Shown here: positions 1 to 54,916 of the stretch, in pieces | Layout: each line of letters starts with the position of its first letter | How positions within the stretch are numbered: position 1 is the stretch's first letter | Assembly: GCA_021734025.1 (NCBI GenBank) | Contig: JAIPJS010000007.1 | Coordinates: 28,441-92,440 of the forward strand | Source of the DNA: Fidelibacterota bacterium | GTDB lineage: Bacteria > Fidelibacterota > JAANXI01 | Direction: 5' to 3' | DNA length: 64,000 nucleotides | Translations under genes and position numbers: made by a program | Notes under the pieces: model-generated | What the model was told of the DNA's origin: nothing | The model's input: only the letters and a program-made list of their open reading frames with translations | Database searches by the model: none

Positions 1-330
1 TATAAAGGTATAGCGAGTAGCATTAATCTTAATCATCCCAGAGGGATCCCTGCGGGATAATCTTACTCTTACTCGATTCTACCTTGAAAAGCAGAAAGGA
101 AATGGGAGAAAGGAGAAAGGAACAGATTGAATATCCAACCGATGAATATCGCATGTCCAATGATGACGTGCCCGGCCTATACCCGCCTTGAAGGAAGAAT
201 GAAAAGTGCAGAAGGAAGAATGAAAAAAATCAACTAACAAAAGCGCAGCGAAAGCTGCGACAACAAACGATTACACGGTAACACGATGACACCCTAACAC
301 GTTGTTACTCGAACATTTGCAGACTTCGTA
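1..330. repeat. Mosaic intergenic repeat element, copy A (truncated by window edge). Order of modules: GGTATARG words, TAATCTTA words, near-palindrome cccagaGGGATCCCtgcggg (37-56), block TACTCTTACTCGATTCTACCTTGAAAAGC, GGAGAAAGG words, CAACTAACAA words, hairpin gcagcGAAAgctgc + GACAACAAAC (245-270), then TAACAC words.
   Basis: About 150 nt (1-150) aligns at roughly 85% identity to 23200-23360. The same module order recurs at 13046-13357. Read directly from the sequence. Confidence 0.6.
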
Positions 331-414
331 TATTTTCCCCATTGACTTTTGAAATGGACACAAGTAGACTGCTATTGTATTTAGTTTGTCGTTCGATCCT
401 TTTCGGAGGTACAC

Positions 415-7832: not shown

Positions 7833-8098
7833 GTGTGGTGATACATTCCTATATGGTCACGGGACGCTTTCATAGGGATTAAAAATTTGATCGTGATGTT
7901 CAGTTAAAGCAGAGAAAGGAGAAGGGAGAAAGCAGAATGGAGCTATCCTGTATGTAATCGTTCATGGCTCTTTCCGGTCTCCTGTCTCCGATCTCCCCTA
8001 TATACCCTTATACCCAAATTCCTGGTTTTTTCCGATGTCAATCTGGAAACGTTTTTATATATTGCATGAAAAGAGGAGAACCCGGGAGGAGAACGACC
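7833..8098. repeat. Partial mosaic intergenic repeat: GAGAAAGGAGAAGGGAGAAAG words plus reverse-orientation cccctatatacccttataccc, which is the reverse complement of the GGTATAAGG words
   Basis: Word arrays match the modules of the elements at 1-330, 13046-13357 and 23171-23550. Confidence 0.4.
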
Positions 8099-10034: not shown

Positions 10035-10057
10035 TTGATAGAATACGGATAAATAAT

Positions 10058-10579
10058 GATTAAACACCGAAGTCACTGAAAAAAAATTAAACACTGAGAG
10101 ACACCGAGAAAACCACCGAAAAGCACTGAATATGACTGAATTGCTCTATCAGGATTTAACGAAGAAAATTCGGCAGGCGGCGTACGACGTCCACTCATAT
10201 TTTGGCGCCGGTTTTCTGGAAAAGGTGTACGAAAATGCATTGGTTTACGAGTTGAAAAAGTCGGGAGTATCCTGCATATCTCAGAGAAAGATAGACGTAT
10301 ATTACGAGGACAAAATCGTCGGAGAATATTATGCCGATATTTTAGTCGAGCGCAAAATTATAATCGAATTAAAGACGGTTGCAGATATCCAAAAAATCCA
10401 TTTGGCGCAATTGAAGAACTATTTGAAGGCTACGCAGTTCAAACTGGGATTATTGATCAATTTCGGTAGCAGTAAGTTACAGTTCAAACGAGTGGTCTTA
10501 TGAATCGGGCGGTTTTTACAAAGTTTTATTGTTTGTTTTGTGCTTTTCTCAGTGTTTTCGGTGTATTTCGGTGTTTAAT
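10058..10579. mobile_element. GxxExxY gene cassette flanked by inverted arrays of a degenerate approximately 10-bp repeat (AMCACYGARA). Left array 10058-10126 and right array 10540-10579.
   Basis: Left ATTAAACACCGAA...AACACTGAGA...AAAGCAC matches the reverse complement of the right gtgcttttctcagtgttttcggtgtatttcggtgtttaat. The enclosed gene is visibly AT-richer than its neighbours and interrupts the LolA-like/FtsX operon. Confidence 0.4.
10132..10503 (+). CDS. GxxExxY family protein (PD-(D/E)xK-like, TIGR04256-type)
   Basis: GEYYADILVERKIIIELK plus the overall about-123-aa pattern of the family. Confidence 0.75.
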   Translation: MTELLYQDLTKKIRQAAYDVHSYFGAGFLEKVYENALVYELKKSGVSCISQRKIDVYYEDKIVGEYYADILVERKIIIELKTVADIQKIHLAQLKNYLKATQFKLGLLINFGSSKLQFKRVVL

Positions 10580-10596
10580 ATGAGGGTACTCTAAAC

Positions 10597-11808
10597 ATGT
10601 TTAAAATTGCCTTCAGAAATATTTTCCGGCAGAAGCGCCGCACGATTCTGACCATGTTGACCATGTTCGGTGGTTTTGTGCTGTCGGCGTTTTCTATCGG
10701 ATATGCCGACGGGACCTATTCCTATATCATCGATCTGTTTACCCGGAATCAGATGGGACACGTCCAGATTCATCAGGGCAATTACCTGGACCGGCCTTCC
10801 CTGTATAAAACCATCGAAGATTACGTAAACGTAGGCGATACTGTTCAGGCCGTTGATCGGGTGCAGGAATGGGCGCCGCGACTCTATTCCTCGGGGCTGG
10901 CGTCAGTCGGAGATAAAACCGCCGGTGTACGCGCGATCGGCGTTGATCCGCAGCTGGAGCATGCGGCCACGGATTTCCGGGATAAGGTCAAACAGGGGCG
11001 CTACCTCTCGGACGAACCCTCCCACGAGGTGATGTTGGGTACAGGTCTCGCGGATATACTAAACGCTGAAGTCGGCGATACCACAGTCATCGTATCCCAG
11101 GGAGCTGACGGTTCCATCGCCAACGATCTGTACCACGTTGTGGGCATTGTCGACCGGGGCGACCAGATGGAAAATCGGACGGGCTATTTTCTCCATTTGA
11201 AGGATGCGCAGGAGCTGTTTGTCCTGCCGAACCAGGTACATGAGATCATCGTAGTCGCCAACAGTATCCATGGCGTCCGGGAGATAGCCAGAACCATCGA
11301 CGGCGCACTCAACAACGAAAACCTGCAGGTCAAACCGTGGATGGAGATCGCCAGAACCTTTTATAAAACCATGATGGCCGACCAGCAGGGGATGTGGATT
11401 ATGCTCTTCGTTATCATCCTCATCGTGGCCATTGGTGTATTGAATACGGTACTGATGTCCGTACTGGAACGGACCCGTGAGTACGGCGTGCTAAAAGCCA
11501 TGGGCACCCGGCCCAATGAGGTATTCAGAATGGTCCTGTACGAAGTGTCCATAATGGCCGTGTTTAGTGTGATACTCGGCGCATTGCTGGCTATAGGACT
11601 GAACTCCTATTTCTCCATTCACGGCATCCCGCTGCCCACGCCGCTGGACTGGGGTGGCATCCAGATCAATTGGATGTATACGGAGAACAGTCTGCGAAGT
11701 ATTACGCTACCGACAATCACCGTGATCATCACTGCGCTGATCGTCAGCGTTTTTCCCGCAATTAAGGCGGCGAGAATTGCACCGGCGCAAGCCATGAGAA
11801 TGCACTAG
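10597..11808 (+). CDS. ABC transporter permease, FtsX/MacB-like
   Basis: N-terminal FRNIFRQKRRTILTMLTM, a large periplasmic loop, and C-terminal FtsX helices. Confidence 0.85.
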   Translation: MFKIAFRNIFRQKRRTILTMLTMFGGFVLSAFSIGYADGTYSYIIDLFTRNQMGHVQIHQGNYLDRPSLYKTIEDYVNVGDTVQAVDRVQEWAPRLYSSGLASVGDKTAGVRAIGVDPQLEHAATDFRDKVKQGRYLSDEPSHEVMLGTGLADILNAEVGDTTVIVSQGADGSIANDLYHVVGIVDRGDQMENRTGYFLHLKDAQELFVLPNQVHEIIVVANSIHGVREIARTIDGALNNENLQVKPWMEIARTFYKTMMADQQGMWIMLFVIILIVAIGVLNTVLMSVLERTREYGVLKAMGTRPNEVFRMVLYEVSIMAVFSVILGALLAIGLNSYFSIHGIPLPTPLDWGGIQINWMYTENSLRSITLPTITVIITALIVSVFPAIKAARIAPAQAMRMH

Positions 11809-11818
11809 GGAATCGGAT

Positions 11819-13045
11819 ATGGGCATATTTATCAAACTGGCGTGGCGTAATCTCTTTCGGAATAGTCGCCGGACCATCCTGGCGAGTCTGGCCATCGGGG
11901 TGGGACTGGCGGCGCTAATCTTCACCGATGCGCTGGTCAAAGGCATGGAAGACAATATGATCCAGTCCGCCACTGCATCGTTTCTCGGCGAGGGACAAAT
12001 CCACCGGGAAGGCTACCGCAAAACCCAGGAAGTGGAAATGACCATCGCCAACCTGGACACGGTCATCCGGCAGCTGGACAATTCGGATATCGTGGCAGAA
12101 TACACCAGGCGAATGATGTCTTTCGGTATGGCGACCTCGCCGTCCAATGTGCAGGCTGTCAACATTGTGGGGGTGGATCCTGCGCAGGAACAGCCCCTCT
12201 CACAAATTGATGAAGCTGTTGTGGAGGGTAATTATTTTATAGGAAATAATTCCAGAGATATCCTGATCGGTAAAGAGCTGGCGGAAATTCTGAAGGTTGA
12301 GCTGGGCAAGCGCCTGGTGGTAACCCTGGCGGAGGCGGAAACCGGTGACCTGGTCCAGGAGATGTTTCGCATTTCCGGGATCTTCCGGTTCGGCATCGAT
12401 GAAATGGACCGTGGGATGGCGTTTATCCGTCTGCCCAAGGCGCAATCAATGTTGGGACTCCAGGGTGAAGCACACGAAATTGCTATTAAATTTTCGCAGC
12501 AGGGTATCGGGCAGGATCAGGATAATCCGTTCTGGAGGCAGTTCTCGAAATACGGCAACGAAGCCCTTGGATGGATCGAACTGCAGCCGCAACTGGCATC
12601 CATGATGGAATATTCCCGGTTCAGTACGTTCTTCGTTGGAATAATCCTGTTCGGCGTGGTGGTGCTCGGCATCATCAATACGCTGTTTATGTCGCTCCAT
12701 GAACGGATGTTTGAGTTTGGCGTTCTCAGGGCTGTTGGCACCAAACCGGTCGAAATGGGAAAACTTATCGTGTACGAGGCGGCGGCGCTCTCGGTGGTAA
12801 GTATTATAGTCGGTATAGTACTTGGTTATCTTATTACGTGGATTACCATGGTAAACGGCATCGACTATACCGGAATCCAGTTTGCCGGCGTCACCTTCCG
12901 GAAGATGCTCTATCCGGTGATGACTTGGCGCCAGTTCGTGGAATACCCGGTTTACGTATTCCTGTTCACGTCAATAACCGGACTCTATCCGGCTTGGTAT
13001 GCTGCCCGGATGCAGCCGGCGGAGGCGATGCGGAAAAGCTTCTGA
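11819..13045 (+). CDS. ABC transporter permease, FtsX/MacB-like (second copy)
   Basis: WRNLFRNSRRTILASLAIGVG. Same architecture as the first copy. Confidence 0.85.
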   Translation: MGIFIKLAWRNLFRNSRRTILASLAIGVGLAALIFTDALVKGMEDNMIQSATASFLGEGQIHREGYRKTQEVEMTIANLDTVIRQLDNSDIVAEYTRRMMSFGMATSPSNVQAVNIVGVDPAQEQPLSQIDEAVVEGNYFIGNNSRDILIGKELAEILKVELGKRLVVTLAEAETGDLVQEMFRISGIFRFGIDEMDRGMAFIRLPKAQSMLGLQGEAHEIAIKFSQQGIGQDQDNPFWRQFSKYGNEALGWIELQPQLASMMEYSRFSTFFVGIILFGVVVLGIINTLFMSLHERMFEFGVLRAVGTKPVEMGKLIVYEAAALSVVSIIVGIVLGYLITWITMVNGIDYTGIQFAGVTFRKMLYPVMTWRQFVEYPVYVFLFTSITGLYPAWYAARMQPAEAMRKSF

Positions 13046-13357
13046 AAAACGGGTATAAGGGTATATGGTATAGGATTATGTCGATTCCTAATCCTAATCT
13101 TAATCATAATCTTACTCTTAATCAGAATTGTTTAAGAGGGAAAGGCAGTATGTAGAAGGGGAAACTTGTTTGTTGTTTGTAGTCGGTTGTTGGTTGTAGG
13201 AAAAAATAGCAGTGCTTTGAAAGGAAATTGAATGCTTATTAATGATTTGCCTCAAAACAACTAACAACTAACAAAAAGCGGCTGAAGCCGCGACTACCAA
13301 CACTAAAACTATAACAACCCTTGAGCACTTTGACACTAAGTAAAGGATGTAAGGCTC
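13046..13357. repeat. Mosaic intergenic repeat element, copy C, inserted between the permease and ATPase genes. Contains GGTATAAGG words, TAATCCTAATCTTAATCATAATCTTACTCTTA, GGTTGTTGGTTG words, CAACTAACAACTAACAA, hairpin gcggcTGAAgccgc + GACTACCAAC, and CTATAACAA words.
   Basis: Same module order as copies A and B. Confidence 0.55.
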
Positions 13358-14062
13358 ATGACCTCATCACAAACCGACAACGTCATCGTCACAGATGGCG
13401 TGGAGAAGACCTACGAAGATAACGGCGTGGCTGTTCACGCTGTACGGGGGATCGATCTGACTATAAAAAAGGGCGAATTCACCGCCATCGTCGGTCCATC
13501 CGGTTCCGGGAAGACCACTTTTTTGAATGTCGTCTCCGGTCTGGATACCGCTTCGAAGGGCAAAATCTGGCTGGACGGGAATCTGGTTTCAGAGATGAGC
13601 GGGAAAGAGCTCTCCGACTTCCGCCGGGATCACATCGGGTTTATCTTCCAGGCGTACAATCTGATTCCGGTCCTCTCTGTGGAGGAGAACGTCGAGTATA
13701 TCATGTTGCTTCAGGGCGTGCCCAAGGAGAAACGCCATCACCGGGTCCTGGATATCCTCGGCCAGGTCGGGCTGTCCGGCTTCGAAGATCGACTCCCCAC
13801 AAAACTCTCCGGTGGACAGCAACAGCGCGTGGCAGTAGCCCGGGCGATGGTGGCGCAGCCCTCCATGATTCTCGCTGACGAGCCGACCGCCAACCTGGAT
13901 AGCGAGACAGGCTCCGAACTGCTGGACATGATGCGTGACCTGAACGAACAGACCGGCATGACCTTCGTCTTTTCAACCCACGACGAACTCATTATGGAGC
14001 GGGCCCGGCGGCTGGTCAGGCTCAAGGATGGCCAGGTGGACAGTGATGAAGTCCGGAGTTAA
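13358..14062 (+). CDS. ABC transporter ATP-binding protein (MacB/LolD-like)
   Basis: Walker A GPSGSGKTT. Signature LSGGQQQRVAVARA. Walker B ILADEPT. Confidence 0.9.
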   Translation: MTSSQTDNVIVTDGVEKTYEDNGVAVHAVRGIDLTIKKGEFTAIVGPSGSGKTTFLNVVSGLDTASKGKIWLDGNLVSEMSGKELSDFRRDHIGFIFQAYNLIPVLSVEENVEYIMLLQGVPKEKRHHRVLDILGQVGLSGFEDRLPTKLSGGQQQRVAVARAMVAQPSMILADEPTANLDSETGSELLDMMRDLNEQTGMTFVFSTHDELIMERARRLVRLKDGQVDSDEVRS

Positions 14063-15320: not shown

Positions 15321-15529
15321 CTTCAGTGCTAGAGTGTTCAAGTGTTTTGGTGTTCGAGTTATTTCTTGATCTTACCCGTAATTTTAACTCTGTGGTCATC
15401 CGTTGTTTCTGCGTTCACCGACTTGTCGGGGACTGCGTGCTATTTTGCCGTTTTCACCTTGCCATTTTCCCGGATTTTCCCTATTTCTGTTTCCTGAATT
15501 TTCCACGCATTTAACAACTGAGAGAGACT
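15321..15529. repeat. Intergenic word-repeat spacer: GTGCTAGA-GTGTTCAA-GTGTTTTG-GTGTTCGA array, conserved motif CTGCGTTCA...TGTCGGGGACTGCGTGCTATTTT, and ATTTTCC word array
   Basis: Shares the GTGTTNAA octamer family with 37633-37769. The 23-nt motif recurs at 25174-25196. Confidence 0.4.
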
Positions 15530-22270: not shown

Positions 22271-23170
22271 GTGAATTGGTTGAATAAACTGATTGTTGGT
22301 ATGATGCCCCTGGCGCCGAATTTCCTGATAGGCCAGGTGGCAAAACGCTATATGGCCGGAGAGACGCTGGAGGATGGAATCCAGCAGGTCTATGATCTGA
22401 ATAATCGCGGTTTTCTCGGAACAATGGATGTACTCGGTGAGAGCATCACGAATAAAGCGGAGACCGAAAAACCGTTGCGACTATACAAGGAGTTAATCCG
22501 GGAGTTGGGGCAGCACCCGGAGATCCGCACCGGGATTTCGGTGAAACTGACCCAGCTGGGATTGAGTATCGATCCGGAGTTCTGCTGGGAAAATTTTCAT
22601 CAGATTATGGAGCTGGGCCGGGAGAGCGATCTCTTCATCCGAATAGATATGGAAGATTCCAGCGTCACCGAGGATACGCTACAAATCGTGGAACGGGCGC
22701 ATGCGGAATACAAAAAAATCGGAGCCGTCATTCAGGCCTATCTTCACCGCTCAGCGGAAGACATGCATCGGCTGCTGGAGCAGGATATCAACGTCCGGCT
22801 CTGCAAGGGGATTTATAAGGAACCCCCGTCAATCGCATTCCAGGGAAAAGAAGAGGTTCGACAAAACTTCATTAAACTCGGGAAGATCTATCTGGACAAT
22901 GGTGGATATATCGGGCTTGCCACCCATGATGAGTTTTTGATCGATCATTTCCGGACCTATATCGATAATAAAGATATTTCTGAGGATAAATACGAATACC
23001 AGGCATTGTTAGGAGTGCCGGTCGAGCATATCCTCGAGCCGCTGGTGGATGAAGGGAAAACCGTTCGGATTTACGTACCGTTCGGCGAGGATTGGTACGC
23101 ATACAGTTCCCGCCGCCTAAAGGAAAATCCCGACATTGCCGGATACGTGGTGAAGGACTTTTTTAAGTGA
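22271..23170 (+). CDS. Proline dehydrogenase (PRODH family)
   Basis: About 300 aa with conserved blocks MDVLGE, IRIDMEDS, VRLCKGIYKE, GLATHDE, LLGV. GTG start. Confidence 0.8.
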   Translation: MNWLNKLIVGMMPLAPNFLIGQVAKRYMAGETLEDGIQQVYDLNNRGFLGTMDVLGESITNKAETEKPLRLYKELIRELGQHPEIRTGISVKLTQLGLSIDPEFCWENFHQIMELGRESDLFIRIDMEDSSVTEDTLQIVERAHAEYKKIGAVIQAYLHRSAEDMHRLLEQDINVRLCKGIYKEPPSIAFQGKEEVRQNFIKLGKIYLDNGGYIGLATHDEFLIDHFRTYIDNKDISEDKYEYQALLGVPVEHILEPLVDEGKTVRIYVPFGEDWYAYSSRRLKENPDIAGYVVKDFFK

Positions 23171-23550
23171 TGAAACCGGTAACGGGGTATAAGGTATAGG
23201 GGTATAAGGGTATAGAGAGTAGGGTTTTTCTTAATCTTCCCATAGGGATCCCTTTGGGATAATCATAATCTTACTCTTACTCGATTCTACCTTGAAAAGC
23301 TGAATGGAAATGGGAGAAAGGTGCAGGGAGAAGGGAGAACGGAACAGATTGAATATCCAATTTTCTAGTTCACAACACAATAGGAGAAAGTTGTTGGTAG
23401 TAACCGCTTCAGCGGTTTTTCGTTTTGAATGAAGAGCATAGAATGAAAACAACGAACAAAAGCGCGGCTAAACCAGTCGTGAGCTTGGTCGAACGAGCCG
23501 CGACTACCAACGATAATACCATAACTTAAACTCTATAACACCGGAGTAAC
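23171..23550. repeat. Mosaic intergenic repeat element, copy B (complete): GGTATAAGG array, TTAATCTT, palindrome cccataGGGATCCCtttggg, TACTCTTACTCGATTCTACCTTGAAAAGC, GGAGAAGGG words, hairpin aaccgcTTCAgcggtt, hairpin cgcggct...agccgcg + GACTACCAAC, TAACAC words
   Basis: Approximately 85% identical over about 150 nt to 1-150. Shares modules with 13046-13357. Confidence 0.6.
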
Positions 23551-24807
23551 ATGCGTGATCCCATCCTAACCCCCACATTTTTCGAACGCAATCGAGAGAA
23601 GTTCATCGCCAGGATGGAAGAGCAGAGCATTGCTGTCTTCCATGCAGCGACGCCGGTCGTAAACAGCGTGGACCAGTTCCATCAATTCCGGCAGTCCAGC
23701 GACTTCTTTTATTTTACCGGACTGGAAAAGCCGGGTTGTATCCTGATGATGCATCCGGAGGATGCCAAAGGAAAGACGACAACATTGTTTATTCCGCAAC
23801 CGGACCCGTCCAAAGAGGTCTGGGAAGGCACCATGCTGGACAAGGAGACCGCCGAAGAAATCAGTGGTATCGACGCCAAATACATCCAATGGGAAAAAAG
23901 TTTTGAAGATACGTTCATCCACGCTCAGCGGGACAGGGAGGTACTCTACGCGGATTACGATGACCTGGGGTTCAAATATGGGACGTCAAAAAATGTCGCC
24001 TTTGTCGGGAAAGTCCGCAAATCTCTCCCGGCGCTGGATATCGTAAAGGTGGGTAAAATCACTCACGATCTCCGTCGGATTAAGCAGCCGGAAGAGATCC
24101 AGCTGATCGAGCAGGCCATAGAAATCACTGGGAAGGCGCTGGAAGCTATCTGGAAACGGTTATCTCCGGGAGTCATGGAATATGAGCTGGAAGCGGAACT
24201 AGCCTATCATTGCATCGCAAACAACGCCCGCCGGTATGCGTACGAGCCGATTATCGCGTCAGGGATTAACGCGGCTACACTCCACTACATCGACAACTCC
24301 AAACAGGTAAATGATGGCGAACTGCTCCTGACTGACGTAGGAGCAGAGTACTCCCACTACTGTGCAGATATCACGAGAACAGTTCCGGTGAACGGTACTT
24401 TTACCGATCGGCAACGGGAGATCTATGAAGCCGTATTATCGGTTGAAAAGACAATCATTGAATCGGTGAAGCCTGGCGTGAAGATGAAGGAACTAAACGC
24501 GGAGGCCAAAGATATGCTTGGCGATCGGTTAATGGATTTGGAACTCATCGGTGATAAGGAGGAGACCGGGAAATATTATATGCACTCCATTGGCCATTTC
24601 CTGGGCTTGGATACTCATGACGTAGGCAGCACCAAGCCACCGCTGGAGCCGGGCAATATACTCACTATTGAGCCGGGGATTTATGTCCAGGAAGAACAAC
24701 TCGGTGTTCGTATCGAGGACGACGTACTTGTTACCGAAGACGGTTGCCGTGTACTGTCTGAAGACATCCCCAAAGATGTGGAGGCGGTTGAGTCACAGGC
24801 AGGATAA
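23551..24807 (+). CDS. pepP: Xaa-Pro aminopeptidase (M24B)
   Basis: Metal ligands in the context DVGAEYSHYCADITRT, HSIGHFLGLDTHD, ILTIEPGIY and VRIEDDVLVT. Confidence 0.85.
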   Translation: MRDPILTPTFFERNREKFIARMEEQSIAVFHAATPVVNSVDQFHQFRQSSDFFYFTGLEKPGCILMMHPEDAKGKTTTLFIPQPDPSKEVWEGTMLDKETAEEISGIDAKYIQWEKSFEDTFIHAQRDREVLYADYDDLGFKYGTSKNVAFVGKVRKSLPALDIVKVGKITHDLRRIKQPEEIQLIEQAIEITGKALEAIWKRLSPGVMEYELEAELAYHCIANNARRYAYEPIIASGINAATLHYIDNSKQVNDGELLLTDVGAEYSHYCADITRTVPVNGTFTDRQREIYEAVLSVEKTIIESVKPGVKMKELNAEAKDMLGDRLMDLELIGDKEETGKYYMHSIGHFLGLDTHDVGSTKPPLEPGNILTIEPGIYVQEEQLGVRIEDDVLVTEDGCRVLSEDIPKDVEAVESQAG

Positions 24808-25203
24808 AAGAATAGCACGCAGATACACGCTGAAAAAACGGATTATCACAGATAAAACTAAGTTTTCTGATAAGAATAAACCTGAACAGATGAAGTTGGT
24901 TTTGGCATTATTCTTTTTACTTGCAAATTCCCGGGGCGAGCGCCTGGAATTCCGGCAATCTCTATAGCGGGTTTGTGACAAAAAAAGTATGTACAACAGG
25001 ATATCCACCTGCAACAGCATATCCTGAACAGTCTGGTGTCAATAAATATGAGTAGCCCCGCCATTCATGGCGGGGAATGGAATGCCGTTTCTATTTGGGG
25101 GCTTCAGCCCCCAATGTTGCTTAGTGATCGCAGAATCACTCTGCGTTCATCCGTTTTTTCGCGAACTCCGGCCTGTCGGGGGCTGCGTGCTATTCTTTAG
25201 AGG

Positions 25204-25830: not shown

Positions 25831-28800
25831 TCAGCCATTCTCTCCGGCGAGCCGTGCCATCTGCAGCAAATAAAACCGGAGCAGTGTCTGTTCCTCCTGG
25901 TCCAGCGCCTGCTCTTCAATTTTGACCAGGCGCTCCACGTCCCGGAGCGCGCGGATTACATCCACCGGTACCTCGGAAACGTTTTCCGGGATCTGGGTGA
26001 GATATTGCACCACGGTGTGTAAAAATTGTCGCATGGAGTCGTCCTGCACATTTTTCAGCAGATCGGTCACCTGTGAGCCCAGACGGACCGCTTGAGTGGG
26101 ATCGCTGGTAAACCGGGATCCACCGGCGTCCTCGTGCTGGGTCAGTGTCTGGATGGCATGTGCCAGCTCCACAAATCGTTCCACCTGCTCGCGGATCGGT
26201 TCGCCAACCAGGTTCCATGTTTTCGCGCGCCATTCCCTGATACGGCCTGGCATCCGGAGCAGGTCTTCCATGTGAACCTGCCACTTTCCGTTGGAGCGCC
26301 CGGCTGATTTCCTCTTTGGAATAAGTGATTCCAGAGAAGTGTTGAACAGGTCAGGCTGGAGAAGTACGGCGAGATCCGGGCGGAAGAACTGGAGGAGTTC
26401 CAGATTAAAGCCGTTCCCGGTGAAAAATTCATCCGGATCGAGTCCCTGACGCCGTAACAACTCTTTTTGCAGCGGTCTGATATACTGCTGCATGGCCGCG
26501 TAATCCTCATGCAGAGCGGAGAATGCCGAATTGCTGGCCGGAAAGAGTGGCTCCATCTGGCCGATGTATTTGAGTTCGGTATCCTGATAAATTCGGAGCG
26601 TGTGAAGAATATCGTACACCGGCAGTTGCGGGAGGATATGTTTCCGGATTTGCGCCAGTCCCTCGTTGTCACTTGTGCGGGAGTCCTGGAATTCCCGGAG
26701 TGCCCGGAAGAGTCCGGTAGTCAGCTGATTAATGCCCAGTACCATAGTCTGGGAACGATTGTGCCCGATAGCACGGAGCAGGCTGCCGTGTTGCGAAAGC
26801 GGGAGGGTTTGAGCAATCTTTTGAACGATCTGCTGTCCCACGTTTTCGTCGCTGTCACGGCTGGGACGAACCACCGGGCGATCCCTGAGTGAGGGCGTGG
26901 TTCGCGCGATGAAATAGGAGATTACGTGAATGCCGACCACATCTTCCGGCCGTCCGTACAGGATCTGCCGGAAGTTATTGGTCATGAGATCCGTTAATTC
27001 CTCGTACACCGGATTCTGGTGGCCCCGCGTCAGCATCTCCAGATCCTGGGCGCCGCGTTCTTTGAATTCCAGGCGGGTATTGACGAGTGGCTCGGAGGCA
27101 CGCGCCAGTTTTTCTTCGTATGACTGCTGGGATTTCGTCACGTGGTGAAAGAGCTCGATTCGCTGGTTATTGGTCAGTGACCGCAGCCGTTCAAATACAT
27201 TACTTTGGAACGTCCGAAACTCGCCACCGGCCCAGACACCCCGGAGTGGACTCCGCGCATACGCGAGACTCCGGCGCCCGGCTTCCGAGAGGTTGCGTTT
27301 GAGCTGTAGCGCATCCGGGCGCGATATCTCAGTTGATGGCAATCCGGCATTGCCGTCGAAATAGCCACCCTGGCGTTGCATCGGTTCGCCGCTGCCCAGT
27401 TTCATCCGGATGTTCCCGACCAGGCCGTGGTTTGTAAGCCAGCGCATGGCGCGGTGCTTGGCCTCCTTGTACAGCTCGGCTCCGGCCAATTGGCTCATCT
27501 GCTGGCTCAGATCCGACCCGGCCACGAACAGCTCGCAGACCATCTCGCTGAATCGCTGAATTTGAGACTGGTCGAGCTTCCGGCTGTGTCCGGCGTAATC
27601 CCACACGCTGTCCAGATACGACTCCAGATTGTGCACTGTATCCACATCCTCGAAAAGCGGCACCACCTTAATTCGCGGAAGGTCGAGTCCGGGATTGTCC
27701 CGCAGGACTTCATCGCGACGGGACCGGAGCTTTCGTTCCAAAGATATGAACGCCTCCGGTTCGTCGGACATGCTGATCTGCAACGCCATCACCAGGCCGG
27801 GATGCCCGTACTTCCCGGCGATCTCGTTGATTTCGGTGATGTTGTGCACCGTGGCATCGATGGCAAACTGGTCCTGTGCCAGGATCATTTTTTGGTGAAT
27901 GCGCGGGGTTAACACGAAGCGTTTCAGGATATCCCGGTATGTACCGGCCTTAAGAGCCACCGCCGGATCCTCGAGGTGTTGCTCCAATACGTCGAGATTT
28001 TTCCGTAGCGTCTTCCGCAATCGCTGGTTCAGCGCAAAATAGTATTCCAGGTTTTCCCGGCGCTGATCCCGGAGTTTACGCATCTTGCGCTCTAACCGAT
28101 CATTATGTTGCCAGAGCGCCCTGACCGGATCCCTGGCCAGCCGGAGTCGCATTCCGAGTTTCCGGAGTTTGCCCGGTTGCACGCCGAACGGTAACACCTG
28201 CTGGTAGCGCTTTTCCAACTGATTGGTCAGCGATGTGATTTCATTCAGCAGGTCCCAGAATTCGCGCTTACTGGCATCCAGCCTCCGGATGTCATCCAGG
28301 AGTTCTGTGGAAATTTCTATGGTTTTATCCCGTTCCGAAAGAGATTGTAATATCCCCGAAAGTTGGGAAACGTTCTCCAGCAGGGCGGCCGCCGCCAGAC
28401 GGTGTCCCTGTCCCGATGGCCGGGTACTGCCGTCCCAGTCACCCCAGAAGGAGAGCAACAGCGGCATATCCAGGTTATACCGGAGCCGGGCATACTCCTC
28501 AGTGCCGACCATCATGCGCAGATCGTTCACCAGTTCGCTCATCTCCTCCCTGGAAAGCAGCGGCACATTTGTGCCCAGATATTCTTCGATGAGTTCGTCC
28601 GAAATTTCGTCCGGTCGGTGCTCAGGAATCCGCTCCCCGTTGAGTAGACTTTGAAACAGTTTGTTCGCCAGTATATCCACCTTCAGCGAGTTCATCTGCG
28701 TGGGATGGACGGTCCGGTCGAACATCCGATTCCTGAAATTTTCTTCTTTGGAATCCAGAGATGTCGGGATTAACTCACGTTCGAGTTGTTTGAGAACGGA

Positions 28801-31461
28801 TTCCTTATTCCGACTGGTTGTTTGTGACACCAGCGATTGGGCCATCTCCATTCTGTCTTTGAATTGTGTCGTCAGCGTTTCAAGTCGCTCCGGGAGATGA
28901 GACCGGGAAAAAATAGCCGCGTACCGCTCGGTATCGATTTCTCTGGAAAATTTCCGAAGCTCTCCGGCTATTTTTTCTTTGGAAAGCGTGGCGAGTCTCG
29001 CGGATAGTTCATTCCAGCGGTTTGCAGCATGATCGAAATGATTGGAACCGGGAGATTTCCGAACCGGCGGCGGAAGCGGTTCCCTGCTATAATTGGCGGC
29101 TTCTTCGCTGATAAGCCGGTTGAGGTCGATCAGTACCCGCCGGGCTTTATGCCGGAGTTCTTCCGCAGGATCAGCGCCGCCCAGGGTGAGGCGGAAGCTC
29201 TTGCGCGCCAGATCGAACCCTTCGGATGTTCTCGCAAAAGTGGTGAGCGGAACCAGGCCGATACCGCGGGTGGCCAGACCGATACCCAGCCAGTCCAGCG
29301 AGATGCCCGCGGGCAATTCGTCGATGGTGAGGTGCGGGTACATGGCGCCCTGCGGTGCACGGATACGAATGCCAAACGGATTCCGTTCTTCCGGCAGCGC
29401 TTCATGAGCATCCAACAGCGCCTGGAGGCGATCGTGTAAAATAGTATTCCTCATTTGCCAGAATTGACGTATATCTTCCTCGTGATTCCGGTAAAACAGG
29501 GAAGCGATGAGCACGGCAAATGTGTTCGGTACGATGCCGGCATTCATTGTGCTAAACCGCGCGAGAATCTCTTTGTCAGGGATATGTGCTACGGCCAACC
29601 GCGCACCGGCAAAGCAGTCGGTTTTGGAAAGGGAGTGAACGGTTATCAGGTTCCGGAGCTGGCTCGCCCGGATATGACCGCTCCGTTTAAGATCCTTCGC
29701 CAGGGCACGCATCGTTGGCGGACCGTTGAGAGATTCCATCGGGCCAAGATTTTCGTAAGCCAGGTCGTCAATCACGGTGATATCGTGGCTGAGTAGCCAC
29801 CGGAGCAGAAGTTTGACTTCTGAGGATTCGAATACCCTGCCGCTGGCGTTATGCGGATTGTTAAGGACAAATGCGCCGTACTCCCGCCATTCCGGATCAG
29901 CTTCCAGTTTTCCTCTGATATGATCGATGATGGCGCGGGCATCCAATGTCAGATTTTCACCCAGAGATACCGCCTCCACAGAGGGGAAGCAGTGCTCGTA
30001 CGTCCAGCTCAGGTCCGGTACCACGGCTTCACGAATTCCGCAGTGGAATCCCAGGAGACTCAACGCTGTCCTCGCAGAGCCGCTGACGACAGCGGCTGAT
30101 TCGGATTCGTATTCCGGATGATGCCGTAAGAACTGACTCAGCAGACTTTCGGTGATCTCTCCGGCGCTGAAACCGGGGTTACCGTGAACATATTTTTCAA
30201 CGATTTCATGTCGATCCATTCCCATGAGCGGATCGGAAATACCTGCATCCTCCGGGAGTACGGAGCGTCCCAAACGATCGCTGGTATCAGCCAGCCGCTC
30301 AACAAGCGATTCCGCCTTTGCCGCTCGACTTTCTACTATGTCTTGAATCCTGCTACCAAATCGTTCTGCCACTTCTGCTGTATATTCAAATTCTGTGATC
30401 GATGACGGATCAGCGACTTGCTTTTGACTATTTTCCTCTGATTCAGGTCCTCCGGAATCTCCTGAAAAAGCTCGTTCAATCTGTGTGGTGAGGAGGACGA
30501 TTTCCGCTCCGGAGGGCGTGCCCTTGAGCTGGAAGTGAATGGTCTCGAACAGTTTCACAAATTCCGCGTAGCCGGCGACGATGTTGAGAGAATCCGCGGT
30601 TATGGAAGAATGAATGGCAGATGGAGAGATGAACCGCAGCACCTGGTTCAGCATACCCGCTTCTCTGGCCAAAGAATGATGATTCAGCGCATCGTTCATC
30701 TCGATGAAAAACAGAGGATAGTCGAGGCTCATCCGGCGAAGTTCCCGGCGGACGCTTTCGCTATGAATCCTGAATAGCACCAGAAAGTGCGGTGATTCCG
30801 GAAGTGAGTTAAAGTGTGCAGAGAGAGTATCGAGGAGTTTTAACTCATCCGCTGGCGTTTGCGGGAATACCAGATTATCAAAGCTTGTCAGATGTTTCGG
30901 TATGGTATTGCCATGGGCAAATATGTACGCTGGCGTCTGGATGAGTGTGCGCGAAAGCGCATGAAACAGCACCCGCATATTTTCCTGTTGCCCACCGGCG
31001 CTGAATACGATTTCCCGGGGTTCGGATTCTCCGCCCAGACCGTAATCCAGTCCTTCTCGCTGGTGGTCCTCAAGCCAGCCCCGGACCAGTTCGGCGAGCC
31101 GGTTGGGTTTTTTTCCGGAGTAGCCACCTCTGGGGATATATTGGACGCTCTGTTCCATCGCCTCATACAGAAGCCGGAGTGTGGATTCATCGGTCTCTTC
31201 CCACAGAGTATTTTCTAGTGATCCCCTGAGCGCATCACCGTTCTGATGCCGGACATTTTTCGGTAAACCGGACACCAATGAGGCATATATATCCAGAAGT
31301 CGGCTGTCGTATACCGGATGACCGATATGGAAATTGACCTTTTTCTCCGCCGGGACGGGCGCGTTTGCTGTGGTCTCACTGATATCCGAGACCTTGACGG
31401 CCTTGAGCGGCCGAAGGCGAAAATATTCCAACGAACCGGGTGTAGTGGATGGTTGGTTCAT
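25831..31461 (-). CDS. Giant 1876-aa multidomain protein: unknown N-terminal region, PLP-dependent aminotransferase (fold type I)-like domain, and C-terminal divergent PEP-carboxylase-like region
   Basis: Aminotransferase motifs NNPHNASG (NPxNPTG-like), IDDLAYENL (DxAY), HSLSKTDCFAGARLA (SxSKxxxxxGxRxG with Lys). PEPC-like blocks ISMSDEP (ISMA/T), KVVPLFEDVD (VPLFET), EMVCELFVAGSDLSQQ...LAGAELYKEA (MVMIGYSDSxKDxG...W.LYKAQ), HGLVGNIRMKLGSGEPMQRQGG (G-rich loop), GVWAGGEFRTFQSN (GGLRVTEQGE). Continuous ORF with no frameshift. Confidence 0.6.
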   Translation of the reverse strand: MNQPSTTPGSLEYFRLRPLKAVKVSDISETTANAPVPAEKKVNFHIGHPVYDSRLLDIYASLVSGLPKNVRHQNGDALRGSLENTLWEETDESTLRLLYEAMEQSVQYIPRGGYSGKKPNRLAELVRGWLEDHQREGLDYGLGGESEPREIVFSAGGQQENMRVLFHALSRTLIQTPAYIFAHGNTIPKHLTSFDNLVFPQTPADELKLLDTLSAHFNSLPESPHFLVLFRIHSESVRRELRRMSLDYPLFFIEMNDALNHHSLAREAGMLNQVLRFISPSAIHSSITADSLNIVAGYAEFVKLFETIHFQLKGTPSGAEIVLLTTQIERAFSGDSGGPESEENSQKQVADPSSITEFEYTAEVAERFGSRIQDIVESRAAKAESLVERLADTSDRLGRSVLPEDAGISDPLMGMDRHEIVEKYVHGNPGFSAGEITESLLSQFLRHHPEYESESAAVVSGSARTALSLLGFHCGIREAVVPDLSWTYEHCFPSVEAVSLGENLTLDARAIIDHIRGKLEADPEWREYGAFVLNNPHNASGRVFESSEVKLLLRWLLSHDITVIDDLAYENLGPMESLNGPPTMRALAKDLKRSGHIRASQLRNLITVHSLSKTDCFAGARLAVAHIPDKEILARFSTMNAGIVPNTFAVLIASLFYRNHEEDIRQFWQMRNTILHDRLQALLDAHEALPEERNPFGIRIRAPQGAMYPHLTIDELPAGISLDWLGIGLATRGIGLVPLTTFARTSEGFDLARKSFRLTLGGADPAEELRHKARRVLIDLNRLISEEAANYSREPLPPPVRKSPGSNHFDHAANRWNELSARLATLSKEKIAGELRKFSREIDTERYAAIFSRSHLPERLETLTTQFKDRMEMAQSLVSQTTSRNKESVLKQLERELIPTSLDSKEENFRNRMFDRTVHPTQMNSLKVDILANKLFQSLLNGERIPEHRPDEISDELIEEYLGTNVPLLSREEMSELVNDLRMMVGTEEYARLRYNLDMPLLLSFWGDWDGSTRPSGQGHRLAAAALLENVSQLSGILQSLSERDKTIEISTELLDDIRRLDASKREFWDLLNEITSLTNQLEKRYQQVLPFGVQPGKLRKLGMRLRLARDPVRALWQHNDRLERKMRKLRDQRRENLEYYFALNQRLRKTLRKNLDVLEQHLEDPAVALKAGTYRDILKRFVLTPRIHQKMILAQDQFAIDATVHNITEINEIAGKYGHPGLVMALQISMSDEPEAFISLERKLRSRRDEVLRDNPGLDLPRIKVVPLFEDVDTVHNLESYLDSVWDYAGHSRKLDQSQIQRFSEMVCELFVAGSDLSQQMSQLAGAELYKEAKHRAMRWLTNHGLVGNIRMKLGSGEPMQRQGGYFDGNAGLPSTEISRPDALQLKRNLSEAGRRSLAYARSPLRGVWAGGEFRTFQSNVFERLRSLTNNQRIELFHHVTKSQQSYEEKLARASEPLVNTRLEFKERGAQDLEMLTRGHQNPVYEELTDLMTNNFRQILYGRPEDVVGIHVISYFIARTTPSLRDRPVVRPSRDSDENVGQQIVQKIAQTLPLSQHGSLLRAIGHNRSQTMVLGINQLTTGLFRALREFQDSRTSDNEGLAQIRKHILPQLPVYDILHTLRIYQDTELKYIGQMEPLFPASNSAFSALHEDYAAMQQYIRPLQKELLRRQGLDPDEFFTGNGFNLELLQFFRPDLAVLLQPDLFNTSLESLIPKRKSAGRSNGKWQVHMEDLLRMPGRIREWRAKTWNLVGEPIREQVERFVELAHAIQTLTQHEDAGGSRFTSDPTQAVRLGSQVTDLLKNVQDDSMRQFLHTVVQYLTQIPENVSEVPVDVIRALRDVERLVKIEEQALDQEEQTLLRFYLLQMARLAGENG

Positions 31462-34323: not shown

Positions 34324-34417
34324 CGACAAAGACAGCGGATGGCCGCTTGAAGCGCTATTCTCGGAATTTATGTTAACATGCTATATAATGAATAGCCCCG
34401 GGCTTCAGCCCGGGGTA

Positions 34418-37632: not shown

Positions 37633-37769
37633 TCTTTACCAGTGTTTAAGTGTTGAAGTGTTAGAGTGTTCAAGTAGTTGCGTGTCATGTGCTCATAATT
37701 CTCATTCGATATTAAAGAGGTCCTGCATACTTTAACACCTGAACACTATAACACTCTAGCACTGTTTTA
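37633..37769. repeat. Inverted arrays of degenerate octamers between sucA and sucB: GTGTTTAA-GTGTTGAA-GTGTTAGA-GTGTTCAA ... TTAACAC-CTGAACAC-TATAACAC-TCTAGCAC
   Basis: The two arrays are reverse complements of each other around a ~60-nt unique core. Confidence 0.5.
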
Positions 37770-47418: not shown

Positions 47419-47633
47419 AAAATGAGATATGAGGTATAGGGTATAAGGAGTAAAATGATTGGAGACCGGAGCCGGAAACCGGAGGCAGGAAACTTGATAC
47501 TTGAAACTGGTAACTTAGGAACAGAGGACACAGGCCACTCGACATTTGACGACTTTTACCTAAACACTTGAACACATGAACACTTTAATACTAAAGTATT
47601 TGAAAAAATTGAGAGACGGACGGAACAACTGAT
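47419..47633. repeat. Mosaic word-repeat spacer between gltB and gltD (GAGGTATAGGGTATAAGGAG; AAACACTTGAACACATGAACACTTTAATAC)
   Basis: Same word families as the other mosaic elements. Confidence 0.45.
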
Positions 47634-51535: not shown

Positions 51536-52699
51536 TTATCTGTCCCAGGAAGAGAAAAGTTGTTCCCATCTGGGGGCCATCCGGGTCCAGTCGAATTCTC
51601 CCGCAATATCTCTGAAGTGAATATTCCGGGTGCCCTCGAGCCTGGTAAGCGCAAATTTCAACTTGCGATATAAGTCACGATCAGAGGTGTACAGGTTTTG
51701 GCCTTGACGGGCTTCCGGTACGTATTCCGGATAGACGAGCCGCTTTGGAAACAGCGGATAGCACCGGCAGTAAAGTGCCTCTAAAGCCGCAATGCCGAAA
51801 AATTCATGCTGTGCAGTACTAAGAACAATATCGGCGTGATGGAGCAGTTCGGCGTACCGTGCCCATTCTTCGGCGTATCCCCAGTGAAGGATATGGCCGG
51901 AGAGACGCTCCCTGGCGGTATCAAAAATTGCCGGATAATCTTCGAATCGTTCTCCGCAAACAATCAAATTAAACGGGATCTCGTCCTCAGCCAGCTGAAA
52001 GAGACTCCTGAAAAACAGCTCTGGATTTTTGTCGTGCTCCCACCGTTGATTCCAGAGAATGGTACCGGCATCGGATTCATTGGATGGAGGTGATACGGAA
52101 TCAAAGCGTTGCAGGTCAAGGCCGAGCGGCATCACAATCGATTTTGACCGGATTCGCTGGACGAGCTCCCGCGGTTTATAATCCACGAATCGCTGGTAGA
52201 ACTCCGGAATGGCTTCCAGGAAATCCCGGAGGTGAAATGCGGAATTGAAGTAAACCCGATCCGCCGCCATCGCCGACTGAATATTCATATGGGCAAAAGT
52301 GAGATCCCGCTCCCTCTTATCCCGGAACGGATAGGTTAGTTGGTTTTCATGGAAGTAAAGCAGCCAGGTCCATTGTGACGGAGAATCCATCAAACCCCGG
52401 AGCGCTGACAGATGAGTGAAATCAGAGGCGAAGATAATCCCCGGCTCCAGCTGCTCCTTCCGGATAACATCCGCGTAGTATTGCGCTGACCTGTGCATCC
52501 GCCATTTCCAGTGGTGAGGGGACATGGGAAGGATCCGGAAGGGCCAATCCAGGTGATTTTTCAACCCCTGGAGAAACTCCTTGTGGGAGCCACCGAAAAA
52601 CGGTTCGAGTCCATAGATGGGCCGGGACACTTTCTGCTCCTGAAATTTCGTTGCGAGTGAAATCTCTGGAACCTTACTATTTTCCGGAGTATTATTCAA
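51536..52699 (-). CDS. DUF3524 + glycosyltransferase family 1 protein (GTDC1 / tRNA-queuosine mannosyltransferase-like)
   Basis: N-terminal LEPFFGGSHKEFL resembles the GTDC1 EAFYGGSHKQL block. C-terminal GT1 fold. Confidence 0.55.
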   Translation of the reverse strand: MNNTPENSKVPEISLATKFQEQKVSRPIYGLEPFFGGSHKEFLQGLKNHLDWPFRILPMSPHHWKWRMHRSAQYYADVIRKEQLEPGIIFASDFTHLSALRGLMDSPSQWTWLLYFHENQLTYPFRDKRERDLTFAHMNIQSAMAADRVYFNSAFHLRDFLEAIPEFYQRFVDYKPRELVQRIRSKSIVMPLGLDLQRFDSVSPPSNESDAGTILWNQRWEHDKNPELFFRSLFQLAEDEIPFNLIVCGERFEDYPAIFDTARERLSGHILHWGYAEEWARYAELLHHADIVLSTAQHEFFGIAALEALYCRCYPLFPKRLVYPEYVPEARQGQNLYTSDRDLYRKLKFALTRLEGTRNIHFRDIAGEFDWTRMAPRWEQLFSSWDR

Positions 52700-53115
52700 A
52701 CCTTTCCTGCGGGAAGAGGGAATAGGGGTATAAGGGTATATGGTATGAGAACAGGAGTGTTAAAGTGTTACTTGTGTTATCGTTAAAAAGAACATGCATC
52801 GAGCGTACTCAATCCTATATCCAAAATGTATCGTCTGTTGGTGGTTCCCTCTTTAGAGGGGTGATCGGGAAAAACGAAAAATTTAGAATGAAAAAGGTGG
52901 TCGTTGGTTGTTGTGGGAAACTTTCCTTCCCGGGATTGCATCAGTATTATAAATATTAAGGATTCGCAATAAATCTCAACAACAAACAAAAGGGATTAAA
53001 AGGGAGATTAGGATTAAGAAGGTGTACAACGATAACACTGTAGCACTATAACACCTTAACACCCTAACACGGTCTTTTCGCATTACGTACTACTTACCAA
53101 TAAAACATTAAATAC
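52700..53115. repeat. Mosaic intergenic repeat region carrying modules in both orientations (GGGGTATAAGGGTATATGGTATGAG; GTGTTAAAGTGTTACTTGTGTTATCG; reverse complement of the TAATCTTA array; GATAACACTGTAGCACTATAACACCTTAACACCCTAACAC)
   Basis: Word arrays match copies A, B and C. Lies between divergent genes. Confidence 0.5.
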
Positions 53116-54204
53116 ATGCTCATGATTTTCATAATGCTACTGCTCAATCTTACGATTAACGGAATTTCCATGGATAGCACTGTACACTCGACATCACCGG
53201 CCCATCACACTGAGAACGGCTTCCGGAATCCGTATTCTACCTGGGAAGACCATGGATTCCGGGATATGCTCAAATGGAGTTTCAGCGATAAGCCAGAGAT
53301 TCCGGAAACCTATACGCTCCCGTGGGTTGAAAATAATCTTTCCTTCCTTGGAGAAAACAGTAGTCCGTCCTATACCTGGATAGGCCACGCTACATTCCTC
53401 ATCGAAATCGATGGTAAGACGATATTGACCGATCCGTTTTTCTCCGACCGTGCGAGTCCGGTGCAATGGGCCGGCCCAAAGCGAATGGTGCCGCCTGCTT
53501 TACCACTCGAGGACCTGCCGCCAATCGATTTTGTAGTGATTTCCCATAACCACTATGATCACCTGGATTATCACACTGTCAAATATTTAGCAGACCGGGG
53601 CAGCCACTTTATCGTGCCACTGGAAATGGATAAATGGTTCCGGGGCCACGGGATGCCGAATGTTACTGCTCTGGACTGGTGGCAGCGTTTTTCCAATGAT
53701 GGTCTTACATTTCATGCGACTCCGGCACAGCATTTTTGTGCCCGAACGCCGTTCGACCGGAATGACGTTCTCTGGGCCAGTTGGGTGATCGAATCGACTG
53801 ATCATGTCTGCTACTTCGCCGGGGATACCGGTTATTTTCCAGGATTCAAAGAAATCGCAAATCGTTTCCCCGCGATTGATGTCGCGCTCCTCCCAATCGG
53901 CGCCTATGCGCCCCGGTGGTTTATGGGGCCAGTGCATCTTGATCCGTCGCAGGCTGTGCAGGTTTTTACCGACCTGGGGGCAGAATATGCGATTGCCATG
54001 CACTGGGGCACGATTAAACTGACAGACGAAGCCATGGACGAACCACCAATCCTGCTGAAAGAATCCTTGAAATCTGCGGGGATCCCTTCTGAGCGATTTC
54101 CCGTGTTTGCCCACGGTGAAACCAGGAGGATGATGGAAGAAGGATGGCGTATACTGCAGGGTACTGAGGCGCAGAAAACTCTCAGGAATTTTTCCCTCCC
54201 CTAA
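53116..54204 (+). CDS. MBL-fold metallo-hydrolase (NAPE-PLD-like)
   Basis: VVISHNHYDHLD (HxHxDH). Downstream His/Asp ligands. Confidence 0.75.
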   Translation: MLMIFIMLLLNLTINGISMDSTVHSTSPAHHTENGFRNPYSTWEDHGFRDMLKWSFSDKPEIPETYTLPWVENNLSFLGENSSPSYTWIGHATFLIEIDGKTILTDPFFSDRASPVQWAGPKRMVPPALPLEDLPPIDFVVISHNHYDHLDYHTVKYLADRGSHFIVPLEMDKWFRGHGMPNVTALDWWQRFSNDGLTFHATPAQHFCARTPFDRNDVLWASWVIESTDHVCYFAGDTGYFPGFKEIANRFPAIDVALLPIGAYAPRWFMGPVHLDPSQAVQVFTDLGAEYAIAMHWGTIKLTDEAMDEPPILLKESLKSAGIPSERFPVFAHGETRRMMEEGWRILQGTEAQKTLRNFSLP

Positions 54205-54470: not shown

Positions 54471-54908
54471 ATGAGCCAGGATTTCAAGCGTCGGACTATA
54501 GTAAACTGGTTGCTCGGAGGGGGAGTAATTGCGTGGCTGAGCGCAATATTTTTCCCGGTATTAAAATACCTCCAACCGCCGAGTATTCCGGAAGCGGTGG
54601 TTTCTTCGGTCAAGGCTGCAACTGTTAATGAACTAGCAAATAACTCCAGTAAAATATTCAAATTCGGAAATAAACCGGGCCTCTTGATCAAGACGCCTGC
54701 AGGAGAGTGGCGTGCTTTTACGGCCATCTGTACCCATTTGGATTGCATTGTCCAATATCGGGACGACCTGGAGCATATCTGGTGTGCCTGTCATAACGGC
54801 CATTACGATCTGCAGGGGCGTAATATCTCCGGACCGCCACCCAGACCGCTGGAAGAATACGACGTTAATATTCAGGGAAAAGACGTCTACGTATCGAAAA
54901 GGACGTAA
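54471..54908 (+). CDS. Rieske [2Fe-2S] protein of a bc/b6f-type complex
   Basis: CTHLDC and CACHNGHY boxes. N-terminal TM helix. Confidence 0.85.
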
Positions 54909-54916
54909 ATATATTA

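Follow-up and report, generated by a model that had tools for sequence, protein, structure and literature searches.

The 64 kb window analysed here, part of contig JAIPJS010000007.1 of a Fidelibacterota bacterium (GCA_021734025.1), contains a recurrent intergenic motif in which a GC-rich hairpin is followed by an AC-rich 9 nt word, ACTACCAAC at the flagged site. This site, here named c2, lies in the spacer between a proline dehydrogenase (Pro_dh) gene (22271–23170) and the aminopeptidase P gene PepP. An initial annotation had listed three copies with shared flanks and a GC hairpin, and all three (c1, c3 and c2, in their order along the window) are present, with small offsets such as a start for c1, 241, that is 5 nt late. 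Between the end of the 9 nt word and the start codons at 415, 13358 and 23551 there are 146 nt (c1), 56 nt (c3) and 39 nt (c2), respectively, and the word is always on the coding strand; the initial annotation gave 40–150 nt. Between 415 and 24807, every neighbouring gene is on the + strand. The genes downstream of motif copies are unrelated, and encode a type IX secretion system (T9SS)-sorted protein, an ATP-binding cassette (ABC) ATPase, aminopeptidase P and a glycosyltransferase.

Further copies were sought with fuzzy word searches and with a covariance model (R1, from alignment A1) built on the copies found. The right edge of the window was extended by 9.4 kb using L104, an NCBI contig of a Candidatus Marinimicrobia metagenome-assembled genome (GCA_021735205.1) that corresponds to window positions 52516–73391. 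This gave 73.4 kb in total, approximately 14% of which is intergenic. Scanning with a covariance model had been suggested by the initial annotation, and together with the word searches it revealed four further sites in the window; the extension added two more copies, c6 and c7. Eight sites combine a hairpin with A(C/A)NACCAAC (c1–c4, c5a, c5b, c6 and c7; Table 1), and all eight are intergenic. The fourth canonical copy, c4, is inverted and lies 60 nt upstream of c2. Two degenerate copies, c5a and c5b, are upstream of the minus-strand gene 51536–52699 and have their AC-rich side on the coding strand of that gene, while a hairpin-less copy at 52967–53047 precedes a + strand gene that starts near 53116–53170. 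None of c4, c5a, c5b and the hairpin-less copy had been noticed initially, nor had the larger repeat that encloses the motif. Within the window, 10 of the 12 occurrences of the word AC[ACT]AC[CA]AAC are intergenic, and an unsupervised repeat search recovered c1–c3 as a 30 nt family (D10) with 70–87% identity.

Chance likeness among low-complexity AC-rich spacers is effectively ruled out, as the initial annotation also suggested. The left word, gap and right word were found jointly three times, whereas 100 dinucleotide-shuffled sequences contained 0.06 such combinations on average and never more than 1, and the 70–87% identity of the family and the covariation of the stems lead to the same conclusion. 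The flanking 10-mers taken singly are not significantly enriched in the window. Covariation of the stems beside conserved flanks had also been claimed, and among the three original copies it is limited to one stem pair (A–T versus G–C). When four copies were aligned, 22/22 scorable stem cells paired and two pairs had changed on both sides. In an alignment of seven copies 93% of cells are paired and double changes are present in four of the six pairs (12 cells), so the compensatory changes that were to be looked for in a larger alignment are there. The covariation score was reached by none of 500 shuffles, and when the partner columns were slid by 1–3 positions pairing dropped to 31–57%. Therefore, the palindrome has been maintained while its sequence drifts. 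The 9 nt word beside it is nearly invariant, and the 3' flank A(C/A)NACCAAC is constant while the stems vary. As all but one of the standard pairs are Watson–Crick, the pairs do not tell which strand is active, or whether it acts as DNA or RNA.

When read on the opposite strand, the units consist of a tag, GTTGGTAGT, which contains GTAG, 0–2 unpaired bases and a GC-rich palindrome of 5–7 bp and variable sequence. The loops are 4 nt, except in c2, where the loop is 26 nt and partly self-complementary. In one subfamily (c1–c4), the palindrome is followed by a T-run, CTTTTGTT, and the minus strand reads GTTTGTTGT-hairpin-CTTTTGTTAG at c1 and GTTGGTAGTC-hairpin-TTTTTGTTAG at c3. GTAG is found 1–2 nt from the stem in c2, c3, c4 and c6, and its place is taken by GTGG in c5b, GTTG in c1 and c5a and GTAT in c7. 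Perfect hairpins with a GT[AG]G tag are approximately 5-fold enriched in intergenic DNA (6/13). The units are found only between genes and in both orientations. They are singletons except for c4 and c2, which face each other head to head with their tags outermost and their stems 45 nt apart. This pair is predicted to fold with a 12 bp closing stem around three hairpins (z = −4.3). With regard to miniature inverted-repeat transposable elements, the c4–c2 unit has inverted ends that match at 10/12 bp, and no target-site duplication is visible.

Some of these features are those of intrinsic terminators, namely a GC-rich stem, a 4 nt loop and a T-run on one strand. A consensus scan scored c1, c3 and c4 as terminator-like, with calls on the minus strand at 259–244 for c1 and on the + strand at 23402–23417 for c4, which is rightly placed and oriented behind Pro_dh, approximately 230 nt past its stop codon. 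A family of ordinary Rho-independent terminators, related only through the duplication of whole spacers, is an unlikely but not negligible explanation. In that case, c1–c3 would be minus-strand terminators that act on antisense or read-in transcripts, or would mark where short minus-strand RNAs end. The TTCA loops on the T-run strand match those of hairpins in terminator positions at 25095 and 34400, and extended −10-like boxes are found just upstream on the minus strand near c3. However, no minus-strand gene lies upstream of c1–c3, three of the four canonical copies are directed opposite to the genes beside them, and a U-run downstream of a gene is seen only at c4. The conserved 9 nt tag is not a feature of terminators, and the small minus-strand ORF that spans c2 has no conserved counterpart in c1 or c3. 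(The same 36-codon ORF was rejected as a coding sequence, as neither its frame nor its length is conserved in those copies.) Copies c4 and c6 share the tag and the stem (AACCGC/GCGGTT and AACGGC/GCCGTT, with a compensatory C–G to G–C swap), yet only c4 has the T-run, which is also missing from c5a, c5b and c7. Thus, the conserved unit is the tag plus palindrome and not a terminator.

The spacers that contain c1, c2 and c3 are collinear over their full length, each repeat being 300–400 nt long (alignment A2), and the motif is thus the 3'-proximal module of a 300–400 nt mosaic repeat. Spacers 1–414 and 23171–23550, which are 23 kb apart and have unrelated flanking genes, share 90% identity across 136 aligned nt of their 5' halves. 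The two part where the 23171 spacer holds c4, and their resemblance returns at GAATGAAAA and extends through the motif. Only the 23171 spacer has an intact c4 module, which is decayed in the 13046 spacer and replaced by other sequence in spacer 1, and further partial copies of the mosaic were found at 47419 and 52700. More generally, the intergenic DNA of the window is built from short strand-oriented arrays of 6–8 nt words. The order is words of the GGTATAAGG type, then TAATCTTA(C/A)TC around the palindrome GGGATCCC, then GGAGAAAGG and then GAATGAAAA, and the words are largely intergenic (12/15 for GGTATA and 10/12 for ACNACCAAC). These ordered arrays around the motif are a more unusual feature than the motif itself.

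Short-read assembly of the same organism is affected by the repeat. Logan contigs begin at window positions 63 and 23271, in both cases exactly 30 nt before the first differing base after a 36 nt exact repeat shared by spacers 1 and 23171, and by the arithmetic of a k = 31 graph these breaks are explained by the two copies in the window. A third Logan contig ends at 13121, inside the TAATCTTACTCTTA (TAATC) module of the 13046 spacer. Its 30-mer is single-copy in the window, and this break suggests that there are further copies elsewhere, a strain variant being also possible.

Table 1. Copies of the motif, the mosaic repeats that enclose them and a promoter candidate; positions are those of the window and scores are those of the covariance model
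Feature	Position	Strand	Sequence or structure	Score
Mosaic intergenic repeat with c1	1–310	+	Modules in order: GGTATA words, TAATC words with GGGATCCC palindrome, GGAGAAAGG words, GAACAGATTGAATATCCAA, GAATGAAAA, c1, TAACAC words; repeat families D1, D7	
Mosaic intergenic repeat with c3	13046–13357	+	Collinear with the other two, more diverged	
Mosaic intergenic repeat with c4 and c2	23171–23550	+	Occupies the entire Pro_dh–PepP spacer	
c1	236–270	+	Flank AACAAAAG 236–243; stem CGCAGC/GCTGCG 244–249/254–259; loop GAAA; ACAACAAAC 260–268	73.8 bits
c3	13262–13302	+	CAACTAACAAAAA (flank AACAAAAA 13270–13277); stem GCGGC/GCCGC 13278–13282/13287–13291; loop TGAA; G; ACTACCAAC 13293–13301	80.3 bits
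c2 (flagged site)	23451–23514	+	AACGAACAAAAG (flank AACAAAAG 23455–23462); stem CGCGGCT/AGCCGCG 23463–23469/23496–23502; ACTACCAAC 23503–23511	70.9 bits
c4	23390–23427	−	Inverted relative to c1–c3; + strand GTTGTTGGTAGT AACCGC TTCA GCGGTT TTTCGTTTTG	51.6 bits
Hairpin-less GT-rich remnant	13168–13197	−	GTTTGTAGTCGGTTGTTGGTTGTAGG; in the place of c4 in the c3 spacer; predicted pairing with the AC-rich flanks of c3	
c5b, degenerate	52837–52861	−	+ strand GTTGGTGGT T CCCTC TTTA GAGGG	14.4 bits, E = 1.9
c5a, degenerate	52903–52931	−	+ strand GTTGGTTGT TGT GGGAAA CTTTC CTTCCC	
Hairpin-less copy, both flanks	52967–53047	+	CAACAACAAACAAAAG ... CAACGATAACAC; GATTA-word block in place of the hairpin	24.4 bits, E = 0.035
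c6	Beyond right edge, in L104		+ strand reads CTGTTGGTAGT AACGGC TTTA GCCGTT; ~130 nt past a + strand gene	
c7	Beyond right edge, in L104		CCTCTAAAGAGGGGAATACCAAC	
Promoter candidate, sigma-70 type	342–370	+	TTGACT-N17-TAGACT, for gene 415–1740	

Bacterial interspersed mosaic elements (BIMEs) of Escherichia coli and BOX elements of Streptococcus pneumoniae are intergenic mosaics assembled from a limited set of short modules. The repeat described here recalls these elements (PMC3049150) in having palindromic units in mosaics with a fixed module order, in which modules may be present, absent or replaced. It differs from these elements in that its modules are arrays of strand-specific 6–8 nt words (GGTATAAGG, TAATCTTA, GGAGAAAGG and TAACAC) and fill the spacer from the stop codon to the ribosome-binding site, and in sequence they do not resemble the modules of BIMEs or BOX elements.

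The palindromic unit most resembles the GTAG family of repetitive extragenic palindromic (REP) sequences. GTAG REPs are extragenic palindromes of 20–40 bp with an unpaired GTAG or GTRG tag and stems of 5–13 bp, with complementary stem changes between subfamilies and, in some, long self-complementary loops (PMC3733652). They form head-to-head dimers with 20–100 bp spacers, and singletons are decayed dimers (PMC3733652). REPs and REPIN doublets are mobilized by REP-associated tyrosine transposases (RAYT/TnpA-REP) (PMC3733652; PMC3337134). The units described here are also extragenic palindromes with a GTAG-type tag at one end, 1–2 unpaired bases between tag and stem, GC-rich stems of 5–7 bp, subfamilies with complementary stem changes and one long self-complementary loop (c2). 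The c4–c2 pair is a head-to-head heterodimer with a 45 nt spacer that can fold as one structure, and c3 with the remnant at 13168 resembles a decayed dimer. We therefore lean towards reading the motif as the palindromic unit of a lineage-specific family of interspersed repeats, GTAG-REP-like and set within BIME-like mosaics, with membership of the REP class being the best fit and not a demonstrated fact.

Several points weigh against this reading. The tag GTTGGTAGT is longer than that of classical REPs, and GTAG or GTGG is present in only five of the eight units, a small sample. The T-run and the conserved 3' tail of one subfamily, CTTTTGTTAGTTG, are not features of GTAG REPs. Classical REPs located between genes in the same direction lie near where the first of the two genes ends (PMC3733652), whereas most units here are near the start of the next gene and not just past the upstream stop. 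Five of the eight lie close to where the following gene starts and have their AC-rich side on that gene's coding strand, a bias that could reflect a function tied to the gene. As all copies are inside the larger repeat, the spread was perhaps through duplication of the mosaic and not through REP-type mobilization. The copy number is based on eight sites in 73.4 kb of one genome, and none of the genes in the 73 kb examined encodes a RAYT or other transposase. Scanning a genome collection with AAAAGCGN{6,36}GCGACTACCAAC returned 88 single matches across all phyla, none with a hairpin or AC-rich flanks. This is the level expected by chance (roughly estimated at ~130), and the collection evidently lacks the source species. 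A metagenome scan with a 20-mer from the larger repeat, GGAACAGATTGAATATCCAA, returned five unrelated matches. Thus, the genome and metagenome scans gave no copy from elsewhere, and mobility is not demonstrated.

The initial annotation had favoured a structured cis-regulatory RNA or a protein-binding site. A structured RNA acting in cis in the leader of the downstream transcript, either as a 5' stabilizing stem-loop or as a site for an RNA-binding protein that recognizes the hairpin and AC-rich words ahead of many unrelated genes, appears rather unlikely. It would account for the orientation bias at c1, c2, c3, 52967, c5a and c5b, where the coding strand of the next gene carries the AC-rich side, and for the sole U–G pair, that of c7, which is possible only on the AC-rich strand. 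The spacer 23171–23550 folds better on the + strand (z = −4.2, versus −1.7 on the minus strand), c2 is downstream of the terminator-like c4 and close to the start codon, and a weak promoter candidate at 13217–13246 would put c3 in a leader. However, the sigma-70-type promoter candidate for gene 415–1740 is conserved in boxes and spacing upstream of the orthologue in the relative L103 (ATTGACTTTT, a 17 nt gap and TA(A/G)ACT). Copy c1 ends at 268 and the −35 box is at least 73 nt further downstream, so that this copy would be outside the 5' untranslated region (UTR) of that gene. Copies c2 and c3 could be transcribed. No sigma-70-like promoter was predicted between c4 and c2, where TAGAAT at 23439 has no acceptable −35 box. 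In addition, c4 and c6 are in the opposite orientation and downstream of genes, and the distance to the start codon ranges from 39 to approximately 200 nt. Rfam returned no matches at the gathering score in the window, and only chance-level matches at E ≤ 5 in the two spacers searched. On inspection, the AC-rich flank gave no consistent fit to an extracytoplasmic function (ECF) or sigma-54 promoter or to an Hfq (ARN)n site.

Comparison with relatives is also unfavourable to a leader RNA. The closest PepP homologues are 70% identical (P0002–P0004) and the next are approximately 60% identical. Syntenic loci of relatives were compared (L091, L092, L093/L094 and L103; ~80 kb in all), and neither word search nor model found the motif there; it is absent upstream of the orthologues of PepP, the ABC ATPase and the T9SS protein. 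The Pro_dh–PepP spacer is 380 nt in the window, whereas L091 has 70 nt and L093 has 131 nt between these genes. The relatives have word arrays and repeats of their own, so they share the style of spacer and not this module. The unrelated downstream genes, the position of c1, the orientation of c4 and c6, the lack of the motif in relatives, its embedding in a mosaic and the Rfam result all argue against a dedicated 5' UTR RNA, and a dedicated, gene-specific structured cis-regulator is not supported. The other part of the earlier proposal, a protein-binding site, may hold.

One form of such a site would be a non-mobile DNA-level target to which the host's own proteins bind, for example a nucleoid protein, or gyrase or integration host factor as at E. 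coli BIMEs. The invariant 9 nt word beside a variable palindrome, the strictly intergenic location and the presence of both orientations are what such a site could show, but this explanation overlaps with the REP-like interpretation, and relatives should have kept a site that does not move, yet they lack this one. We regard it as improbable. It is unlikely, too, that the hairpin-plus-ACTACCAAC motif and the word arrays (GGTATAAGG after stops, TAACAC before starts, and others) are undescribed, lineage-wide, strand-oriented intergenic signals in Marinimicrobia, read by dedicated DNA- or RNA-binding proteins that set the transcript boundaries or stability of many unrelated genes.

Under the preferred REP-like interpretation, the family would have spread within the genome or lineage either by duplication or recombination of mosaics or through an HUH/RAYT-type enzyme that recognizes the tag and hairpin on single-stranded DNA. 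Effects on genes would be by-products of orientation. Where a unit behind a gene has its tag on the coding strand, as for c4 and perhaps c6, the hairpin and T-run could terminate or stabilize the upstream transcript, and c4 would split the Pro_dh–PepP pair. In L091, where these genes are only 70 nt apart, they are perhaps co-transcribed, and they probably form an operon. In the orientation seen at c1–c3 (A-run, hairpin, ACTACCAAC), sense transcription would not be stopped, and a unit could therefore be tolerated beside the following gene. It may ride as a hairpin in the leader or intercistronic RNA, and would bring antisense transcripts to an end. Decay of the sense-terminating partner in the 13046 spacer may reflect this tolerance of orientation, as that spacer parts the permease genes (10597–13045) from the ATPase gene (13358–14062), and these genes may be a single ABC-transporter operon.

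A second type of tagged palindrome was found between convergent genes at 25049–25076 and 34389–34416. Its form is ATGA(G/A)TAGCCCCG..., and the stems, which follow ATGA(G/A)TAG, are CCCCGCC/GGCGGGG or CCCCGGGC/GCCCGGGG, with TTCA-type loops. These palindromes may represent a second REP-like family or simply be local terminators. A separate module, the palindrome CCCAGAGGGATCCCTGCGGGA with GGATCC or GGATCT at its centre, is present at 37–57 and 23239–23259 and as two tandem copies in L104 (14590–14650).

Arrays of the GGTATAAGG type, the first module of the mosaic, are found at 13046–13075, 23172–23220, 47430–47450 and 52721–52746 (+), at 7993–8023 (inverted) and at 1–20. They directly follow stop codons, and in two cases are inverted just before a gene start. 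TAACAC(T)N arrays immediately precede start codons, on the coding strand, at 274–306, 2731–2752, 23520–23545, 37729–37764, 47558–47584 and 53029–53076. The complement, GTGTT, is just 3' of stop codons at 15325–15359, 37641–37685 and 10540–10580, and arrays of these words are also found in L104 (20120–20200). In the 37633–37769 spacer, TAACAC and GTGTT arrays face each other, and a hairpin of approximately 36 bp is possible. The heptamers known as short tandemly repeated repetitive (STRR) sequences in heterocystous cyanobacteria are likewise short strand-oriented intergenic word arrays, and have no fixed module order around a palindrome. They differ from the arrays described here in sequence and phylum, and in that the modules here are ordered around a palindrome.

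Inverted arrays of CACCGA/CACTGA words (10035–10131 and 10504–10596) bracket a GxxExxY/PDDEXK_3 gene (10132–10503). Homologues of its product were identified in 7,995 of 8,000 scored candidates at E ≤ 1e-5, mostly on very short contigs, as expected for a multi-copy gene associated with repeats. Searches with the T9SS and GxxExxY proteins returned no recognizable paralogues from the same genome. The 70% relative L092 has its own 120 nt spacer element on both sides of pepP, and the word AATAGCAC(G/A)CAGAT after stop codons (L092 9184–9368, 10815–10940 and 19995–20440 for these features). The word is also present after the pepP stop in the window (24808–24860). Pro_dh and the Xaa-Pro aminopeptidase gene are adjacent (window 22271–24807; L091 9016–11275) in all of the relatives read except L092.

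Elsewhere in the window, a minus-strand ORF at 25831–31461 encodes 1876 aa, for which a match to aminotransferase class I/II is the only Pfam match on record, and its synteny is kept in all of the relatives read. Rieske/cytochrome b genes form a cluster, and six or more genes for multihaem cytochromes c come after it (window 54712–63998; L104 10893–14356).

If the motif and word arrays do belong to a system of intergenic signals, the motif would be a functional, protein-recognized punctuation mark and not a selfish repeat. If the REP-like interpretation is correct, the repeats would constitute a REP/BIME-type family in the uncultured phylum Marinimicrobia (SAR406), from which no report of such elements was found in the literature searched. 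Such repeats break short-read assemblies, inflate spacers (380 versus 70 nt) and can insert terminators into former operons, and when genomes of this lineage are annotated these hairpins should not be taken for riboswitch-like regulators.

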